A stretch of DNA of 64,000 bases. Origin: a virus. Made by a program: the position numbers and the translations under genes. Below the pieces are notes generated by a model. The model was given only the letters and a program-made list of their open reading frames with translations, did no database searches and was not told where the DNA came from. Location: positions 1 to 64,000 of IMG/VR virus record IMGVR_UViG_3300022848_000011; one strand, 5' to 3'. Shown here piece after piece: positions 36,992 through 59,861 of this stretch. Positions within the stretch are counted from its first letter, which is position 1. Every line of letters starts with the position of its first letter.

Positions 36992-38002
36992 ATGAATGTT
37001 TTGGGTTTCGATGTTGGTACTTACAATTTAATCTCTTGTTCAAGACAAGAAAACAATTACGAATACAAAAGAGAAGTAAATGGTTTTGTCAAGTTAAATA
37101 TTGAATCTAGAGCAATATTTAACATGATGGAAAAATCAGGCGTAAAATTAGTAGAATTCCCTGATGAAAACGTGGCTTATGCACTAGGAAAAAACGCTGT
37201 AGAAATGGCACGCACTTTACCTAATGTAGAATTGTTGCGTCCTATGAAAGATGGGTGTCTTAATCCAAAAGAACATTATGCTCAAGAAATTATGAGTATG
37301 ATGATTCACGGAATGATAGGAGAAATCGAACAAGACAATACAACTCTTTTTTATAGTGTCCCTGCGAATGCACTTAATGAAGAAACTGATGCTGATTACC
37401 ATCAGAAAGTGTTACAACAAATTTTTGATGATTATGAAAGTGATCAGGGTTTTAAACTTGATGCCAGACCAATCAATGAAGCATTAGCTCTTGTGTATGC
37501 AGAACTAGAAGAAAAAGCCTGGACGGGGATCGGGATCTCATGCGGGTCGGGGATGGTAAATATTTGTTATTCTATATTTGGAGCACCCGTCTTCCAATTT
37601 TCTATTGTAAATAGTGGTGATTGGATTGATAAACAAGCATCAAAAGCATTAGGTGAAACAACTACCACCTATGTAAATAGACAAAAAGAAAAAATCGACT
37701 TCACAATACAACAAGATGAGCTAGTTTTCAGAGCAATCAAAACTCAATATGAAATCATGATTCATAATACTGTTAATAAAATTGTTGAAGGATTCGAAAA
37801 AGCAGGACATAACACAAGAACAGATAAACCCGTTGATATTATTTTGGCTGGCGGAACCGCAACTCCAAACGGATTCGAAGAATTGTTTAAAGAAGCATTA
37901 AATAAAGTTAAATTGCCGATTAAAGTTGGAGAAATTATCAAGCCCAAAGAACCAGTTAAATCAGTAGCAAGAGGTTGTTTGGTTGCTGCTGAAAATGCAT
38001 AA
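36992..38002 (+). CDS. Actin-like ATPase (MreB/ParM/MamK superfamily)
   Basis: Phosphate-1 GFDVGT, connect INEALA, phosphate-2 GISCGSGMVN, adenosine IILAGGTA and VARGCL. Confidence 0.88.
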   Translation: MNVLGFDVGTYNLISCSRQENNYEYKREVNGFVKLNIESRAIFNMMEKSGVKLVEFPDENVAYALGKNAVEMARTLPNVELLRPMKDGCLNPKEHYAQEIMSMMIHGMIGEIEQDNTTLFYSVPANALNEETDADYHQKVLQQIFDDYESDQGFKLDARPINEALALVYAELEEKAWTGIGISCGSGMVNICYSIFGAPVFQFSIVNSGDWIDKQASKALGETTTTYVNRQKEKIDFTIQQDELVFRAIKTQYEIMIHNTVNKIVEGFEKAGHNTRTDKPVDIILAGGTATPNGFEELFKEALNKVKLPIKVGEIIKPKEPVKSVARGCLVAAENA

Positions 38003-52245: not shown

Positions 52246-53370
52246 TCAATGTTGGTGGAAAGGAACATCTGGGTGACCATGATCATGAACATAATCCATT
52301 CTTTGAAAATTACTGTAATCAAATACCAGATGTTTGTCATCTTGACTAATTTCCCAAGCTAATTCAAGTGCATAGTTAGTAATTTTTTCCATGCCTTCAT
52401 AATTAATTTTATCTGCCGTGTCACTAGGAGTGTGGTAGTGGGGGTGACCACCTGTATGTAAGAAAGCAACTGGAATACCCCTGTTGTAAAAAGGTGCATG
52501 ATCGCTACCACCAGAACCTCGACTCGTTATTTTCTCAGCAAAATCATACTTTTGATTCAAATTTTCTATTATTCTTTTCAAATCTAAAGATGATTCTCCT
52601 TCATTAAAACCAACACTAAACATACCCTTACCCAACCAACCCACCATATCCATATTAACCATAGCAACATGGGATTTAATATCAGGATTATTCATTGGAA
52701 ATAAAGGTTTAGAACAGTAATAACGAGAACCTAATAAACCCATTTCTTCAGCAGAATACGCTTGGAAAACAATGGTTCTATCTGGTTTTAATTGAGAAAT
52801 ACCTTTAGCAACTTCTAATAATACAGCAGTTCCACTTGCATTGTCATCAGCACCAGGATGAATCTTATTACTTGTTCTTGATCTAGAATACTGTGGCCCG
52901 TAACCAATGTGATCCATGTGCGCCCCAACAATCACTACTTTATCAGGTGATTTACTGCCTTCTATCCAACCATAAATATTTTCTGTCCATAAATCACCCA
53001 TTTCACGATTCGGACCAGGATTGACTCTTCGTATAGGAATTCTTTGCCTAATTGTTTTTAAACCATAACTCTTAAATTTGTCTTCTATAAAACTAGCAGT
53101 AAGTTTATTCCCTGTTTTACCAGACATTCTTCCTTCAAATTCATCAGAAGCTAATTTATAAACCACATCCTTTAGATTATCTAAAGAAATTTCCTCTAAA
53201 ACATCTTGAACTGTCTTGTTTTGTGGCTTTTCTGCAATTGGAGCAGTTCTTTGTAGTAATGGAATTGTTTCATCGCTTGTTTTTTTTGATTTTGATACAA
53301 AAATAATAATCGAAAAAAACAATAAACTAAACATCATCAATATTATTTTGACTTTTTTGTCTTGACTCAT
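52246..53370 (-). CDS. Membrane-anchored M28 family aminopeptidase
   Basis: N-terminal TM helix. GAHMDH, GADDNASG, SAEEMGLLGS, NMDMVG, SDH and YHTPSD. Confidence 0.93.
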   Translation of the reverse strand: MSQDKKVKIILMMFSLLFFSIIIFVSKSKKTSDETIPLLQRTAPIAEKPQNKTVQDVLEEISLDNLKDVVYKLASDEFEGRMSGKTGNKLTASFIEDKFKSYGLKTIRQRIPIRRVNPGPNREMGDLWTENIYGWIEGSKSPDKVVIVGAHMDHIGYGPQYSRSRTSNKIHPGADDNASGTAVLLEVAKGISQLKPDRTIVFQAYSAEEMGLLGSRYYCSKPLFPMNNPDIKSHVAMVNMDMVGWLGKGMFSVGFNEGESSLDLKRIIENLNQKYDFAEKITSRGSGGSDHAPFYNRGIPVAFLHTGGHPHYHTPSDTADKINYEGMEKITNYALELAWEISQDDKHLVFDYSNFQRMDYVHDHGHPDVPFHQH

Positions 53371-53587
53371 CTTGTTCCTCTTTTGGTTTTTCGGAGTTTG
53401 CTTTTTCTTTGAAGAAAAAACCTAAAATATAATTATTGAACAAAAAAGAAATACAAATTCCTCCAATTGTTCTTAGCAGCCACCAACCAAATGATGTTGC
53501 TGTGACTGGATCAACAAATTGTTTTTCAATTTTGTGATTTTCTTTATCTTCGTTAAATTCTTCATCACTCAAATTATTAATTTTCAT
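53327..53587 (-). CDS. Small membrane protein
   Basis: Hydrophobic segment FGWWLLRTIGGICISFLFNNYILGFFF. Confidence 0.6.
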   Translation of the reverse strand: MKINNLSDEEFNEDKENHKIEKQFVDPVTATSFGWWLLRTIGGICISFLFNNYILGFFFKEKANSEKPKEEQDESRQKSQNNIDDV

Positions 53588-53642
53588 TTATTTTTTTTGC
53601 GTTTTTACCAAATTGTGTGCTAAATAATATAAAAGGTTAATT

Positions 53643-54584
53643 ATGTCAGAATATAAAATAAACAAAAGTTTGCAATATCCTAATGTAGAATTTCAAGATT
53701 ATTACAACAAGTTCGAAACGGTTGAAGATATGCTGGCTGGTTTGGAGTGGAATGATTTTTTCTCTCACTTTTACGAAATTAGCAGAGAAGAGCAAGAAAT
53801 ACTAATTGGTGAATCTCTCCAAGAACTTAACATGTTCAATGAGGCAAAACAATCTGAAGAACTTTCAAAATGCGCAAATAGTTTCAAGTATTGGTGTCAT
53901 CGCTATGTTGAAATTTATCATTACAAACATGGACAAATCCCATTTATTAACTACAAATACCAAGATCGTGTAATAGAAGGTTTCGAAAACAATAAATTTA
54001 ATATAGTTTCAAAATTCAGACAAGCTGGATTGACTACACTTAGTTTGTTGAAAAGCATACATAATTGTTTATTCAAAAATGATCAAAAAATCAATATAGT
54101 ATCCAGAACAGATCGTGAAAGCATTGATGCAAGTTATATTACCCAACAAGTTATGGATAATTTGCCTAAATGGATGTATGACCCAAAACAAAATAATACT
54201 TCAAAATATGAGAAAAAATTCCATACCACAAATTCTCGCATTTATTTCAATACCCCACTATCTACAATTGGACAATCTAGTACTTGCTTAATCTTCAATG
54301 AAGCAGCTTTCATTGAAGATATGGAGAAACATTGGGAAGCTATGTATCCAATTATTGCTAATGGCAGTAGTGTACAAGTTTTTTCAAGTGTTAATGGAAT
54401 AAATAGTTGGTATAACAAAATATACAAAGAAGCTATTAAAGGTAATAATCAATTTAATCCAATTGCAGTTGACTATTGGGAACATCCTACGTTTTCAAAT
54501 CCTGAGTGGGTTGAAACAGTAAAATCGAACTATAGTAAAAAAATATGGAAACAAGAATTCATGAGAAATTCTTGCGCATACTAA
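53643..54584 (+). CDS. Terminase large subunit ATPase-only paralogue (no nuclease domain, Walker B D to N)
   Basis: Colinear with residues ~15-315 of the downstream TerL. Motifs KFRQAGLTT and LIFNEAAF. Confidence 0.88.
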   Translation: MSEYKINKSLQYPNVEFQDYYNKFETVEDMLAGLEWNDFFSHFYEISREEQEILIGESLQELNMFNEAKQSEELSKCANSFKYWCHRYVEIYHYKHGQIPFINYKYQDRVIEGFENNKFNIVSKFRQAGLTTLSLLKSIHNCLFKNDQKINIVSRTDRESIDASYITQQVMDNLPKWMYDPKQNNTSKYEKKFHTTNSRIYFNTPLSTIGQSSTCLIFNEAAFIEDMEKHWEAMYPIIANGSSVQVFSSVNGINSWYNKIYKEAIKGNNQFNPIAVDYWEHPTFSNPEWVETVKSNYSKKIWKQEFMRNSCAY

Positions 54585-54594
54585 TGAGTATACT

Positions 54595-56424
54595 ATGTCT
54601 AAACACAAAAGCAATGAAGGACCACCAAAAGATTTAAAATACCCCACTATAGCCTTTGAAGATTATTATCATAAATTTGAATTTGTCAAAGATATAATTA
54701 AAGATCCTGAATGGGATAAAGTATTTTCTAATTTCTACAGATTTAGTGATGAGGAAATGGATATTCCATGTGGCGAAACTGTACATGATCTCAACGTTTT
54801 TGAACCAAAACAACAATACCAAGAAATAATAAAATGTACTAATAACTTTAAATATTGGTGTCATCGTTACGTGAAGATCCTTCACGCAAAATATGGCACA
54901 ATACCTTTTATTATGTACAATTATCAAGAACGTGCTATTGATAATTTTGAAAATCATAGATTTAATATGATTTCTAAATTTAGACAAGGTGGATTAACTA
55001 CTATTGGCGCACTCTGGGGTTTGCACAAATGCTTGTTCAGAAATGATCAACAAATCTATATGCTTTCCAAAACAGATCGTGAAGCCGTCGCAGCAGGTGA
55101 TATTGTCAAAAAAGCAATGGATAATTTTCCTGAGTGGATGTATGACAAAGAACAAGCAGAAATATCAAAACACGAAAAGAAATTTAATGATACTGCATCT
55201 AAAATTTGTTTTTATACACCCGAAGCCGCTCGGGGCAAAACCGCCACCTGTCTAATGATTGACGAAGCAGCTTTTATTGAAAAAATGGACGAACACTGGG
55301 AAGCTATGTATCCAGTGGTATCAACTGGTGGTAGTGTTCAAGTTATATCTACAGTTAATGGTGTAGGCAACTGGTATGAAGAAACTTATAGTGAAGCTCT
55401 AGAAGGTAATAATTTCTTCAATATTATTGAATTAGATTACTGGGAACACCCAACATATGCAAACCCTGAATGGTCTAAGGTTGCAAAAGCAAATATGGGT
55501 GAAAGGAAGTGGAGACAAGAAGTCTTAAGAGATTTCTTAGATTCAGGAAATACCTATTTTACTTCAAATGTTATTCAAACTATAGACTTATTTACTCAGA
55601 AAATCAAACCACACAGAACGCTATTTGAAAAATGGCAAAACCCTAATTATGATAAACTAAAGTGGGAACCAGGAGCATTACATATATGGCAAGAACCTAT
55701 TGAAGGACATGAATATTTACTAGCTGGTGACTGCGCAGAAGGTATAGGAGAAAATGGAGATAATTCCTGTTTTCAGCTTATTGATATTAATCGAGTAGAA
55801 CAAGTAGCTGAATTTTACAGTAACAATGTACCTCCTCACATATTTGCCCAAATAATTAACCAAATAGCACTGTATTACAATACATGTAGTGTCGTTATTG
55901 AAAATAATACTATTGGTGGTGCTGTTATAAATGTTTTACAACATGAAGTAAATTACGAAAACATCTATCATGAACCATTATCTAACAGACAAAGCAAGCC
56001 TGGGATAAGAATGTCCCCGCAAAATAGAAAGTTGTATCTAGAATCATTAGCCAAAAGATTAACAAACGGTAGTTTCGTAGTTTATAGTAGAAGGTTTCTT
56101 CATGAATTAAATACATTTGTTTTTGATAATCAAAAAAACAGAGCAGAAGCACGTAAAGGAAGACACGATGATGCTATTATAGCAATGTCAATAGCTATCT
56201 ATACAAGAGATGAAGCAATAAGAGGGATGCCTGTAGGTGGTGGTGTAAGCACTACTACAAAAGATGTTATTAGTAGTAGTGTTTTCGAAGAAATCAAAAA
56301 AGAAATATTAGAAGATGATTGGGAGGATGAAGACTATGATTTTGAATCATCTTTAGAAATAGATATACTTAGACCAATGTATGGGCAACCTCATTCAAAA
56401 ATTCTTGAAGAGTTCGGGTGGTAG
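54595..56424 (+). CDS. terL: Terminase large subunit (T4 gp17-like)
   Basis: YQ adenine motif, KFRQGGLTT, MIDEAAF and ISTVNG. RNase-H-like GDCAEG...DNS...HDDAIIA. Confidence 0.95.
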   Translation: MSKHKSNEGPPKDLKYPTIAFEDYYHKFEFVKDIIKDPEWDKVFSNFYRFSDEEMDIPCGETVHDLNVFEPKQQYQEIIKCTNNFKYWCHRYVKILHAKYGTIPFIMYNYQERAIDNFENHRFNMISKFRQGGLTTIGALWGLHKCLFRNDQQIYMLSKTDREAVAAGDIVKKAMDNFPEWMYDKEQAEISKHEKKFNDTASKICFYTPEAARGKTATCLMIDEAAFIEKMDEHWEAMYPVVSTGGSVQVISTVNGVGNWYEETYSEALEGNNFFNIIELDYWEHPTYANPEWSKVAKANMGERKWRQEVLRDFLDSGNTYFTSNVIQTIDLFTQKIKPHRTLFEKWQNPNYDKLKWEPGALHIWQEPIEGHEYLLAGDCAEGIGENGDNSCFQLIDINRVEQVAEFYSNNVPPHIFAQIINQIALYYNTCSVVIENNTIGGAVINVLQHEVNYENIYHEPLSNRQSKPGIRMSPQNRKLYLESLAKRLTNGSFVVYSRRFLHELNTFVFDNQKNRAEARKGRHDDAIIAMSIAIYTRDEAIRGMPVGGGVSTTTKDVISSSVFEEIKKEILEDDWEDEDYDFESSLEIDILRPMYGQPHSKILEEFGW

Positions 56425-56429
56425 GTAAT

Positions 56430-56720
56430 ATGAAAAAATATGAAACAATTTTAAAACTTCTCAATGAAGTTCAAAAACATACAAAAGATTATAAAGATAA
56501 AGAAATAAGAAAAACTGTATCTAAACTTATTGAAATCGTCGAGTCCAAAACTAAAATTAAATCAAATTATGACAAAAAAATGACTCCATTAGAGAGTTGG
56601 AAACTTAATTTAGAAACAGGTAAATTACAGCATCCAATTAGTGATGAACTTGCACAAAACGCATTAGATAATTTAGAAAATATGATCGAAATAGAACTAA
56701 AGAAAACTTCAAACAACTAA
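56430..56720 (+). CDS. Hypothetical protein
   Basis: Helical ~96-aa ORF after terL. Confidence 0.6.
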   Translation: MKKYETILKLLNEVQKHTKDYKDKEIRKTVSKLIEIVESKTKIKSNYDKKMTPLESWKLNLETGKLQHPISDELAQNALDNLENMIEIELKKTSNN

Positions 56721-57305: not shown

Positions 57306-59861
57306 ATGGCTTGGTGGGATATTTATAAAACATGGAACTACAACCTTAGTAGAGATCCATTAAATCAACAATCAATAGAAGATCGTGCAATTGGAGGAGG
57401 ATTAACCTCTCCCGGTGGTGTTCCTGATATTCGTGACCAAAATGTTGGAGGTATGACCGATACAAACTTCCGACAATCTAATGATTTTATCGACCTTCAA
57501 ACTGTAGAAGATAGATTATCTAGATATAAAGAATACGAAAGATTATTATCAGTTCCAGAAGTCGAAATGGCATTAACTGTCATTGCTGATGAAGCCTGTA
57601 TTGCAGGCAACACTATGATATCAACACTGTTTGATGGATATAGAACCATAAGTTGGTTGGAAAAACGATGGCAACAAGATCAAAAACCGTTTTTAACCTA
57701 TTGTTGGGACTTTGAAAAAGAAGACTATACTCTTGACTGGGCCTATAATCCAAGAAAAGTTAAAACAGAAGAAACTGTATGGGTTGCTCTTGATGATGGA
57801 AATCATTTTGTCACCACGCTTGACCATAGAATATTACTTAGTAATCAAGAATGGAGACATGCAGGTGATCTAAGAGAAAAAGATGAACTTATCCCTTTTT
57901 ACAAAATGCCACCACATCCTGAATTAAATAACATTAAACACAATCAATTTTCTAGAATACGTACAAATAAATATGGTTGGGTCAACGAAAGACAATTTGT
58001 TGATATATGGAAAGGTCAAGAACCAGATCAAAAAACATTAGAAACTCTTAGATATGGTAACTATATCGCAAATGGATTCACTCGTGAACAAATCGCTCAC
58101 ATGTTCGAAAGAGATACAAGAAGCCATAATGAATGGGTTAAGGATATAGGATTTACACATAAAGAACTTAGATGGTTGGGGAAAAAAGAAAAAACCCGAA
58201 AAGTTATTGGCGTTTTTCCTCACAAAGTATTAGACGTATATGATCTATCAGTGAAAACACACCAAAACTTCTGTACTGATGCAGTCGTTATGCACAATTG
58301 TCAAGAAGACGATGATGGTAATTTATTCAAAATATTATCAAAAAATGAGGAAGTGGTCAAGGAATTAGAAACGATTTGCTTTGGGAAAAGATATCTCAAC
58401 CTGAATAGAAACCTAAGAGGGAAGATTAAACGACTTTGCCTAAAAGGCGATCTGTTTGTTGAATTACTTTCTGCCCCAGAAATGCCGAAAAAAGGTGTTC
58501 TGAAACTAGCAGAATTACCACCAGAAGAAATGTTTAAAATTGTTACAAATAAAGATCGAGTTGTTGAATACCAACAATCAGGTAATGGACCCGATATTGA
58601 TGTTTTGATGAAATCGACAGATGATGATATCGAATTACAAAAGAGTACTGCTATTAGATTTCATCCAAAACAAATCATTCACTTCAAACTAGGTGACGAA
58701 AAATCATTCTTCTATCCATACGGTAAATCAATAGTAGAACCAGCTAGAAGTCCTGCTCATCAATTAAGACTCATGGAAGATGCTGTAATGGTATATCGAT
58801 TGGCTAGAAGCCCAGAAAGAAGAGTTTTTTATATTGATGTTCAACAATTACCTCCATTCAAAGCAGAAGCATTTGTTAGTAGATTTAAAGATCAATTCAA
58901 GAAAAAGAAAGTTGCTTTAGATAAAGGAAAAGGAGGAGCTTCTGCTGTCGAAGAAAGATGGCATCCACCTGCTATTGATGAAGATATTTGGTTGCCAATT
59001 CGACCAGGATCAAATACTAGAATTGAAACATTACCTGGGGCTACGAATTTAGGTGAAATTGGAGACTTAGAATATTTCCAATCTAAATTATTTACAGCAT
59101 TAAATTTTCCAAAAGATTATTTTAATACTGATGATATCTCCAAAACGAGAATTACCCTTTCTTCACAAGATGCTAGATTTGCAAGGATGATAGAAAGAAT
59201 ACAAGGAGATGTTGCTGATGGCATCCATCAATTATGCGAAACACATTTAGAAATGCGTGGATTTCCATATGAAATGTACAGAGATATTAAAATAAAAATG
59301 ACTCGTCCATCTCCTTATAAAGAAATAAGCGAAATGGAGGTAATTAATCATAGATTAAATATTATAGCTCAATTAAAAGGTATGATGATTATGAGTGATT
59401 ATGATCTATTAACAAGATATTGGAATGCTACAGAAACAGATGCTGAAGATATAATTGCTAGAGCTAAAGCTCAAAAAATGGAAGATATGAAATTTCAAAT
59501 ATTAGGGCAAAATCCAGCATTATTAGGAATGGGAATACCAGGACAAGAAGGTGATGAAAACGAAATGGGAACAGGTGCTGATGGGCCAAATCCAATGTTA
59601 GGACCTACACCTGATAAACAACCAGATGGTAACCAAGAAAATAAAGAATCTCCAGATGAACAAAATATTAATCCCGATAATCCCGAAAAAGATAATTTAA
59701 ATAATCAAGATACAGACTCTCAACCTAATATGGATTCAAAAGTCGAACCTTTACCAATACCATCTGATGAAGATCTTGAAAAATATAATCTAGAATTACA
59801 AGATTATGACAGATATCAAGATGCTGAAGATATTGATTTTGGTACCGAAGAAGGATTGTAA
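57306..59861 (+). CDS. Portal protein (T4 gp20-like) containing an intein
   Basis: PEVEMALTVIADEA, QLRLMEDAVMVYRLARSPERRVFYIDV, EDIWLP and IETLPGATNLGEIGD. Confidence 0.95.
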   Translation: MAWWDIYKTWNYNLSRDPLNQQSIEDRAIGGGLTSPGGVPDIRDQNVGGMTDTNFRQSNDFIDLQTVEDRLSRYKEYERLLSVPEVEMALTVIADEACIAGNTMISTLFDGYRTISWLEKRWQQDQKPFLTYCWDFEKEDYTLDWAYNPRKVKTEETVWVALDDGNHFVTTLDHRILLSNQEWRHAGDLREKDELIPFYKMPPHPELNNIKHNQFSRIRTNKYGWVNERQFVDIWKGQEPDQKTLETLRYGNYIANGFTREQIAHMFERDTRSHNEWVKDIGFTHKELRWLGKKEKTRKVIGVFPHKVLDVYDLSVKTHQNFCTDAVVMHNCQEDDDGNLFKILSKNEEVVKELETICFGKRYLNLNRNLRGKIKRLCLKGDLFVELLSAPEMPKKGVLKLAELPPEEMFKIVTNKDRVVEYQQSGNGPDIDVLMKSTDDDIELQKSTAIRFHPKQIIHFKLGDEKSFFYPYGKSIVEPARSPAHQLRLMEDAVMVYRLARSPERRVFYIDVQQLPPFKAEAFVSRFKDQFKKKKVALDKGKGGASAVEERWHPPAIDEDIWLPIRPGSNTRIETLPGATNLGEIGDLEYFQSKLFTALNFPKDYFNTDDISKTRITLSSQDARFARMIERIQGDVADGIHQLCETHLEMRGFPYEMYRDIKIKMTRPSPYKEISEMEVINHRLNIIAQLKGMMIMSDYDLLTRYWNATETDAEDIIARAKAQKMEDMKFQILGQNPALLGMGIPGQEGDENEMGTGADGPNPMLGPTPDKQPDGNQENKESPDEQNINPDNPEKDNLNNQDTDSQPNMDSKVEPLPIPSDEDLEKYNLELQDYDRYQDAEDIDFGTEEGL
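57597..58298 (+). mobile_element. Intein (234 aa) in the portal protein
   Basis: Block A CIAGNTMI, block B TTLDHRIL, block F VYDLSV, block G VVMHN followed by Cys+1. No LAGLIDADG motifs. Confidence 0.93.

Follow-up and report, generated by a model that had tools for sequence, protein, structure and literature searches.

A stretch of 64,000 nucleotides from an uncultured virus (IMG/VR virus record IMGVR_UViG_3300022848_000011, positions 1 to 64,000; hereafter the window) contains two neighboring genes of the same orientation that both encode the ATPase domain of a terminase large subunit (TerL). The downstream gene codes for a T4-type large terminase of 609 amino acids (aa) that aligns with T4 gp17 along both domains, while the upstream one codes for a 313-aa protein corresponding to the ATPase half alone, referred to below as the paralogue (Table 1). 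BLASTP alignment of the paralogue with residues 1–313 of the adjacent TerL gave 165/313 identities (53%), 75% positives and E 1e-130, with a single 4-residue gap near the N-terminus. Thus, the two open reading frames (ORFs), their coordinates, the identity of approximately one half and the end at the ATPase–nuclease linker, which the original prediction had read from the letters of this DNA, were all present as described. The source record comprises 85,362 bases with a CheckV completeness of ~17%, and the paralogue and TerL are the only two TerL-like places in it. Since relatives of this TerL reside on contigs of 360–630 kb, the source is a huge phage.

Table 1. Features of the paralogue–TerL locus (positions in the window)
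Feature	Position	Strand	Remarks
M28-family peptidase gene	52246..53370	minus	N-terminal hydrophobic stretch; conserved divergent TerL neighbor, matched in 54 fetched loci
ORF divergent from the paralogue	53327..53587	minus	
Upstream region of the paralogue	53588..53642	+	55 nt; AAAGG Shine-Dalgarno-like element 8–12 nt before ATG
TerL ATPase-domain-only paralogue	53643..54584	+	313 aa, intact frame; TAA, then in-frame TGA
P-loop, deviant Walker A of the clade	54009..54038	+	SKFRQAGLTT in the paralogue, SKFRQGGLTT in TerL; kept, one G to A
Arginine-finger loop, remodelled	54255..54278	+	PLSTIGQS for TerL PEAARGKT; Ile209 for TerL R213
Walker B, altered	54285..54311	+	CLIFNEAAF; Asn219 (AAT at 54297) for TerL D223; catalytic Glu kept
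C-motif	54381..54398	+	FSSVNG for TerL ISTVNG; Ser249 for T253, aligned with T4 T287
Spacer from paralogue stop to TerL start	54585..54594	+	10 nt, TGAGTATACT; no clear Shine-Dalgarno element
Full-length TerL	54595..56424	+	609 aa; ATPase ~residues 1–320, RNase H-like nuclease ~360–540; catalytic motifs all intact

The paralogue ends at own-TerL residue ~313 plus four residues, that is at the boundary between the ATPase and nuclease domains. Pfam Terminase_6N matched both proteins, while the nuclease family Terminase_6C matched the 609-aa protein only, and the Pfam search found no match to PF17289 (Terminase_6C) in the paralogue. For PF03237 the paralogue gave E 6.6e-6, above the cut-off, and PHROG TerL families matched it too. 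AlphaFold2 built from a 40-row alignment a model of a complete domain (mean predicted local distance difference test score, pLDDT, 94.3; predicted template modelling score, pTM, 0.92). The top Foldseek matches of this model were T4 gp17 structures (3cpe, 2o0h; E ~2e-17), and 8dgc was also found among the fold matches. In the window the downstream gene is complete, so a TerL split into separate ATPase and nuclease genes was rejected. Fusion of the two products by readthrough or frameshifting was ruled out as well: the genes lie in different frames, with TAA TGA between them.

Conservation was assessed in an alignment of 120 TerLs from the clade of the window TerL. Three motif changes noticed originally, IDEAAF to FNEAAF, PEAARGKT to PLSTIGQS and ISTVNG to FSSVNG, were all confirmed. 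Over the Walker B stretch TerL reads LMIDEAAF and the paralogue LIFNEAAF; D223 and E224 of TerL align with D255 and E256 of T4 gp17, of which E256 is named the catalytic glutamate in the available part of PMC5737356. By profile alignment, TerL R213 occupies the position that differs between PDB entries 4ZNI and 4ZNJ, the latter titled P74-26 TerL R139A. Residue R139 of P74-26 is reportedly the subject of Hilbert et al. 2015. According to the accessible portion of PMC5727402, R139 is a biochemically confirmed trans-arginine finger, and T4 has an arginine at the equivalent place with its finger role unconfirmed as of that paper. In the clade alignment of 120 TerLs this arginine, the Walker B Asp and the Walker B Glu are conserved without exception (100%), and the Asp-Glu pair is kept in 26/26 nuclease-bearing TerLs of the exhaustive search described below. 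The proposal of a hydrolysis-dead copy, put forward in the original prediction, therefore gains weight as judged from sequence, since the paralogue has lost the finger arginine and has altered an otherwise invariant pair.

These replacements are part of a wider change. Of the 109 columns within the span of the paralogue that are conserved at a level of at least 98%, 25 are changed in the paralogue; at the level of at least 90% (176 columns) differences number 58 for the paralogue, 16 for the window TerL and one for the median TerL. Changed conserved positions include R213I, K215Q, D223N, T253S, H193Y, G258N and N259S. All clade TerLs share the deviant Walker A SKFRQGGLTT (residues 126–137 of the window TerL, 54970..55005), with Leu at the position of T4 gp17 K166 (161-SRQLGKTT-168) and a conserved Lys four residues before the P-loop Arg. 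It resembles the 'deviant Walker A' motifs that Mitchell and Rao are said to have described for some terminases. K, R and G of the P-loop are retained in 8/8 paralogues compared, and the P-loop of the window paralogue is probably able to bind nucleotide.

The tandem pair is not an assembly artefact, because contigs from three runs (X5, X6 and X8, none flagged as a possible source) bridge the paralogue–TerL junction with 0 differences. Altogether 15 runs matched, all of them DNA from lake metagenomes of one year and possibly of one campaign; four of the 15 were compared at the junction, and no sequence variants at the locus were found in these four. Nei-Gojobori comparison of the paralogue with its own TerL gave 0.259 for the proportion of nonsynonymous differences (pN) and 0.722 for the proportion of synonymous ones (pS), with synonymous sites saturated. 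Neutral evolution was simulated with substitutions only, starting from TerL and continuing until the nucleotide identity had fallen to the 65.7% observed. Stop codons arose in every one of the 5000 replicates, 16.9 on average; the remaining five frames of the real paralogue ORF contain 10–41. If the comparison is limited to columns in which the own TerL agrees with the clade consensus, changes in the paralogue affect 23 of 108 columns conserved at a level of at least 98% (21%) versus 32 of 57 columns conserved below 90% (56%; Fisher p 1e-5). Conserved columns are thus spared, which means that fold constraints still act on the paralogue. Taken together, these data show that it is still under purifying selection and is not a pseudogene or a decaying duplicate. 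The original argument that an intact frame in spite of heavy divergence speaks for selection was therefore borne out, both by pN being lower than pS and by the failure of all simulated frames to stay open.

Phylogenetic data place the origin of the paralogue in the lineage of its own TerL. A 53-row tree built on the ATPase part joins the paralogue and its own TerL as sisters with a Shimodaira–Hasegawa-like approximate likelihood ratio (SH-aLRT) support of 94 and end branches of 2.9 vs 0.26. A 47-row tree gave the same pair with support 97 and branches of 1.11 vs 0.22, and in a 153-row FastTree both proteins fell inside a 4-row clade at 99. The branch of the paralogue is thus ~5–11 times longer than that of its own TerL since the split. 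The ATPase part of the own TerL is ~65% identical to other clade TerLs vs 53.5% to the paralogue, so that the paralogue evolved much faster after duplication. Taken by segments, identity of the paralogue to its own TerL exceeds the median identity to other TerLs in 8/8 cases. In the related loci L085, L087 and L007 TerL is immediately preceded by the divergently oriented M28 peptidase gene, while in the window and in L089 an extra ATPase copy is situated between these two genes. The closest GenBank phage, LR756511.1 (595 kb), has the same gene order and one TerL only. No close relative of the paralogue was found in the IMG/VR scan, and a word-indexed protein search over the range of 172–548 aa returned only its own cluster and P0002. 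In an exhaustive search of 1.84 billion representatives its own cluster was again the nearest, the next proteins being 38–44% identical. The sister placement, the M28–TerL order and the ends of the copy fit a simple tandem duplication: in the phage's own lineage the 5′ half of the TerL gene, together with a few upstream bases, would have been duplicated, giving rise to an upstream copy whose end coincides with the ATPase/nuclease boundary.

Similar events were found among relatives. Of 99 unique related TerL loci collected from IMG/VR, 81 have at least 1 kb of upstream sequence, and an upstream ATPase-only copy was registered in two of these 81 (L089 and L162) and additionally in L021, where the end of the contig falls within the copy. 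The three copies all terminate at own-TerL residues ~314–317. That of L021 is 75% identical to its own TerL and keeps the motifs, including Asp-Glu, with TDRE changed to TARE and a 5-residue deletion; it extends a few codons past the boundary, with an overlap between its stop and the start of TerL. In the L089 copy Walker B reads Glu-Glu and the finger Arg is lost. In the L162 copy it reads Asp-Asp, so that the catalytic Glu is lost, and a 165-aa ORF separates the copy from TerL. Of the tandem pair and the D-to-N change, which the original prediction proposed to look for in related phages, the former does recur as upstream copies, while the substitution itself is not shared by any of them.

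In the 47-row tree each copy groups with the subclade of its own TerL. Forcing all four into one clade, a group named after the tree had been seen, cost 96.4 units of log-likelihood, and a single common origin of the window, L021, L089 and L162 copies was rejected by the approximately unbiased (AU) test (p-AU 1.8e-13). For L089 the first 80 residues are far closer to its own TerL than the remainder, and the core shifts its place in FastTree. With such mosaic likeness, an independent origin is less certain for this copy than for those of the window and L021, and gene conversion of an older copy may have taken place. The L021 pair is not saturated and allowed a three-taxon Nei-Gojobori estimate for separate branches. 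On the paralogue branch synonymous divergence (dS) was 0.28 and nonsynonymous divergence (dN) 0.126, i.e. a dN/dS ratio (omega) of 0.45, or 0.33 with another outgroup; on the TerL branches of the same group omega was 0.03–0.07. Selection on the L021 copy is relaxed, and it is clearly not neutral. Thus, a gene found only here with dN/dS near 1, which the original prediction had regarded as fatal to its own proposal, is not what was observed: copies are present in three further loci, and the one ratio that could be estimated without saturation lies well below unity.

Nuclease-less proteins with a TerL-type ATPase domain form a much wider class. HMMER search of the same 1.84 billion representatives gave 3063 hits at E ≤ 0.001, and lengths and boundaries were counted for 149 proteins analysed of the best 150. 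Among them 87 are shorter than 400 aa; 76 of these 87 end at own-TerL residues 300–329, 61 at residues 310–319, and 51 start at residues 70–79. The proteins were then sorted by what follows the ATPase domain, with 56 longer and 82 short ones, the latter being 78 of the 87 short proteins plus P0167, P0171, P0159 and the window copy. P0167 and the TerL P0115 come from contigs of equal length (42,560) and might share one contig. Long proteins with a nuclease domain (n = 26) all kept Asp-Glu. Long proteins with a different conserved C-terminal domain (n = 29) kept it in 21 cases and had at the R213 position 12 R, 12 C and 5 other residues. Short proteins with neither domain (n = 81) kept it in 65 cases, with 33 R, 25 C and 23 other residues. 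These three classes leave out two proteins, a long one that lacks both domains and a short one in which the C-terminal domain is present. In the complete genome G002 (572,167 bases with terminal repeats; loci L185 and L190) a full TerL (604-aa frame) lies ~25 kb from an ATPase-only homologue (228-aa frame). Since both forms are held by one genome, at least some short forms are true paralogues and not halves of split genes. Some other short hits, for instance P0125, P0137 and P0143, may be pieces of interrupted TerL genes. P0125, P0137, P0143 and P0131 (contigs up to 667,745 bases) continue for 15–60 residues past the boundary and then have unrelated tails; the form of these calls suggests that in some huge phages the TerL gene is broken up by frameshifts, introns or insertions.

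The window copy belongs to this class by architecture (ATPase only, end at the boundary, full TerL in the same genome) and not by ancestry. With the copies of L021, L089 and L162, with P0167, P0171, P0159 and P0002 and with the 81 short forms it shares the ATPase domain alone, the end at the boundary (QEVLxxF...) and the preserved P-loop. Like the window copy, short forms are often altered, Asp-Glu being changed in 16/81 and the Arg absent in 48/81. Unlike other nuclease-less forms, the window copy arose independently and more recently from its own TerL, and it retains the N-terminal 75 residues, which are missing from most short forms. Huge phages thus appear to have spun off nuclease-less TerL ATPase-domain proteins repeatedly, and the class is apparently undescribed.

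In other huge phages a protein of 510–607 aa was encountered (L167 5914..7446, L168 5980..7668 and L174 5536..7359). Its TerL-type ATPase domain is joined through a linker of low complexity to a conserved C-terminal domain, which is ~100 aa long and is not the nuclease. Its gene lies between an actin-like gene and the small neighbors of the latter. That actin-like gene is 55% identical to the one located in the window at 36992..38002, where the 510–607-aa gene is absent. In L169, L171 and L176 the protein is split or permuted, and in L176 an ORF of its own, located upstream of the ATPase ORF, encodes the C-terminal module.

Based on these data one can propose, tentatively and at somewhat less than an even chance, that the paralogue is a functional tandem-duplicate pseudo-ATPase, which binds ATP, is deficient in hydrolysis, is co-expressed with TerL and modulates the terminase; this function is inferred from its sequence features and context. 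The protein would bind nucleotide and hydrolyse it poorly or not at all, and without the finger it could not activate a neighboring subunit. Made with TerL from one transcript, it would be a catalytically inactive, TerL-like partner of the packaging machinery, similar to the non-catalytic subunit or brake suggested in the original prediction, and could occupy TerL–TerL or TerL–portal interfaces or hold TerL monomers. Such occupancy would tune when and how the motor and the nuclease assemble. A broader proposal, possible and at the same time doubtful, is that in huge phages the motor half of TerL has become, several times and independently, a dedicated non-catalytic subunit co-assembling with the motor or gating it, so that some packaging rings or assembly intermediates would be naturally heteromeric and regulated by a pseudo-ATPase derived from TerL. 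If so, the window gene would be a young, clean example standing beside its parent.

Several observations weigh against the proposed modulation of the terminase by an inactive partner. Replacement of the Walker B Asp by Asn does not by itself prove that all activity is lost, and the R213 position in the 26 more distant nuclease-bearing TerLs is occupied by 19 R, 5 A, 1 M and 1 S. The particular catalytic changes differ among the independent copies, with D-to-N in none of the other three. The rarity of the tandem copy (2/81 loci plus L021) means that it is not needed for packaging in this clade. Omega raised approximately tenfold above that of TerL, estimated in the one unsaturated case of L021, also fits relaxed constraint. 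Finally, many nuclease-less homologues lie far from TerL, some of them in the actin-like operon, and a role outside packaging is therefore possible.

The last point leads to the view that the gene encodes an exapted protein with the ATPase fold engaged in some job outside packaging, such as DNA handling, positioning or transport, so that its place beside TerL reflects only its birth. The abundance of short forms ending at the ATPase/nuclease boundary (76 of 87), the distance of 25 kb between the two G002 genes, the position of the 510–607-aa form beside the actin-like gene in three loci and the preservation of Asp-Glu in most short forms (65/81) would all be natural on this view. The window copy itself behaves differently: it branches with its own TerL outside those older lineages, has neither the Walker B Asp nor the finger Arg and stands 10 nt from TerL in the same orientation. 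For this particular gene exaptation is unlikely.

It may also be supposed that the copy is a functionless by-product of duplication, tolerated owing to its end at a domain boundary and its ability to fold and 'detoxified' through the loss of catalytic and interface residues, with the frame kept open only since TerL is transcribed, and perhaps translated, through it. The copy is indeed rare and patchy, and close relatives do without it: L024, with ~95% TerL identity to L021, and L087, with ~82% to L089. The raised omega on the L021 copy branch and the arrangement of the starts, with TerL lacking a Shine-Dalgarno element and beginning 10 nt after the paralogue stop (in L021 stop and start overlap), are compatible with this supposition. 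The selection tests weaken it. Selection against stop codons alone would not yield pN well below pS, would not give omega of 0.33–0.45 on the L021 paralogue branch and would not spare the conserved columns of the fold. The same architecture has been reached independently several times, and saturation of synonymous sites in the window pair means that the copy has persisted for a long time. A passive by-product is accordingly quite unlikely.

Recognition of phage proteins by Avs systems, on which Gao et al. 2022 are said to have reported, offers one more function, namely an anti-defence decoy or inhibitor: a TerL look-alike that binds or soaks up Avs/STAND receptors without triggering them. The available part of PMC13581612 states that Avs1–3 recognise the TerL fold, and that of PMC11564622 reports binding of KpAvs2 to the ATPase domain of TerL. 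The entry 8dgc is among the fold matches of the paralogue, which would moreover be made at the same time as TerL. However, target binding activates Avs, so a faithful look-alike should trigger the response and not block it. Besides, the gene is situated in the packaging module and not among recognisable counter-defence genes, and no TerL-like decoy or inhibitor was found in the literature searched. The probability of a decoy is therefore low.

Replacement of the small terminase subunit (TerS) in its canonical place just upstream of TerL, as in T4 with gene 16 directly upstream of gene 17, would agree with the position of the paralogue and with the absence of a recognisable TerS among the neighboring ORFs examined, and is highly improbable, since this place is empty in relatives (divergent M28–TerL neighbors, single TerL in LR756511.1, no TerL-like gene there in 79/81 loci), Pfam and PHROGs matches of the paralogue are to large-terminase families only and to no small terminase, and an ORF of 100–126 aa downstream of TerL is a better TerS candidate.

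Among known systems the pseudo-ATPase proposed here is closest to the ATPase domain of T4 gp17 (PDB 2O0H, 3CPE, 3EZK), with which it shares fold and family (profile E 2e-36). The adenine-binding YQ, the P-loop Arg-Gln, Walker B and the C-motif align residue for residue. In contrast to gp17 the paralogue has no nuclease and carries Asn for D255, Ile for the Arg of the 'AVRG' loop and Ser for T287. Two further differences from gp17, Leu at the K166 position and Lys four residues before the P-loop Arg, are common to its parent clade. With the R139A mutant of P74-26 TerL (PDB 4ZNJ) it shares the absence of Arg at the same position, this absence being natural. Unlike the mutant, it is a natural selected gene, which has in addition the Walker B change and ~20 further changes at invariant TerL positions. 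TerS proteins, for example T4 gp16, have their genes in the same place directly upstream of TerL, and regulation of TerL may be common to both; there is no sequence or fold relation between them and the paralogue, whose family matches are to TerL only.

Non-catalytic paralogues are known as pseudo-ATPase subunits of P-loop and AAA+ assemblies, for instance delta and delta-prime of clamp loaders. They provide a working analogy: the paralogue keeps the fold and possibly nucleotide binding, having lost the residues for hydrolysis and the finger. Unlike those assemblies, a terminase motor is described as a homomeric ring built from a single kind of large subunit (PMC9410871, in the part of the text available). 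In the literature searched, with subscription journals and supplements outside the search, no description was found of ATPase-only, duplicated, truncated or inactive TerL paralogues or of TerL-like decoys; the accessible portion of the comparative paper on jumbo phages (PMC7824862) mentions only the canonical two-domain TerL.

A TerL copy maintained by natural selection with fold and P-loop preserved, but with no nuclease, no Walker B Asp and no finger Arg, would be a ready-made probe of communication between motor subunits. If the paralogue joins or gates the motor, it would represent a new layer of packaging control, which could matter for phages that fill the capsid with approximately half a megabase of DNA. 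The wider class may prove more useful than the single gene, being common and diverse in metagenomic huge phages and often deprived of catalytic residues. On the practical side, nuclease-less TerL copies can mislead TerL-based phage classification and gene calling.

As for the expression signals of the locus, the region between the paralogue and the divergent ORF (Table 1) is presumed to contain the promoter of the paralogue–TerL pair. Scanning for sigma-70 consensus elements and terminators gave no sites above shuffled sequence and no terminator between the paralogue and TerL, and no promoter motif common to the compared upstream regions was found. The short spacer without a Shine-Dalgarno element is compatible with co-transcription and possibly with coupled translation of the two genes.

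Downstream of TerL a small ORF (56418..56720) overlaps the TerL stop. ORFs of this kind (100–126 aa) recur in relatives (L003 8054..8434, L089 6674..7036); the ORF has no Pfam or PHROG match and is a possible candidate for the small terminase. A different gene follows TerL in L021 (2562..3470) and L024 (6896..7804): it codes for a 302-aa protein with an N-terminal helix-turn-helix (weak Pfam HTH_38) and a middle part that by eye resembles PD-(D/E)xK-type endonucleases, and it may be a homing-endonuclease-like gene. It was found both with (L021) and without (L024) the upstream TerL copy. The T4-type portal gene of the window (57306..59861) carries an intein (Pfam Intein_splicing, residues 154–331), and enlarged portals were also observed in relatives: 857 aa in LR756511.1, 893 aa in L089 and 1270 aa, probably with two insertions, in L162.

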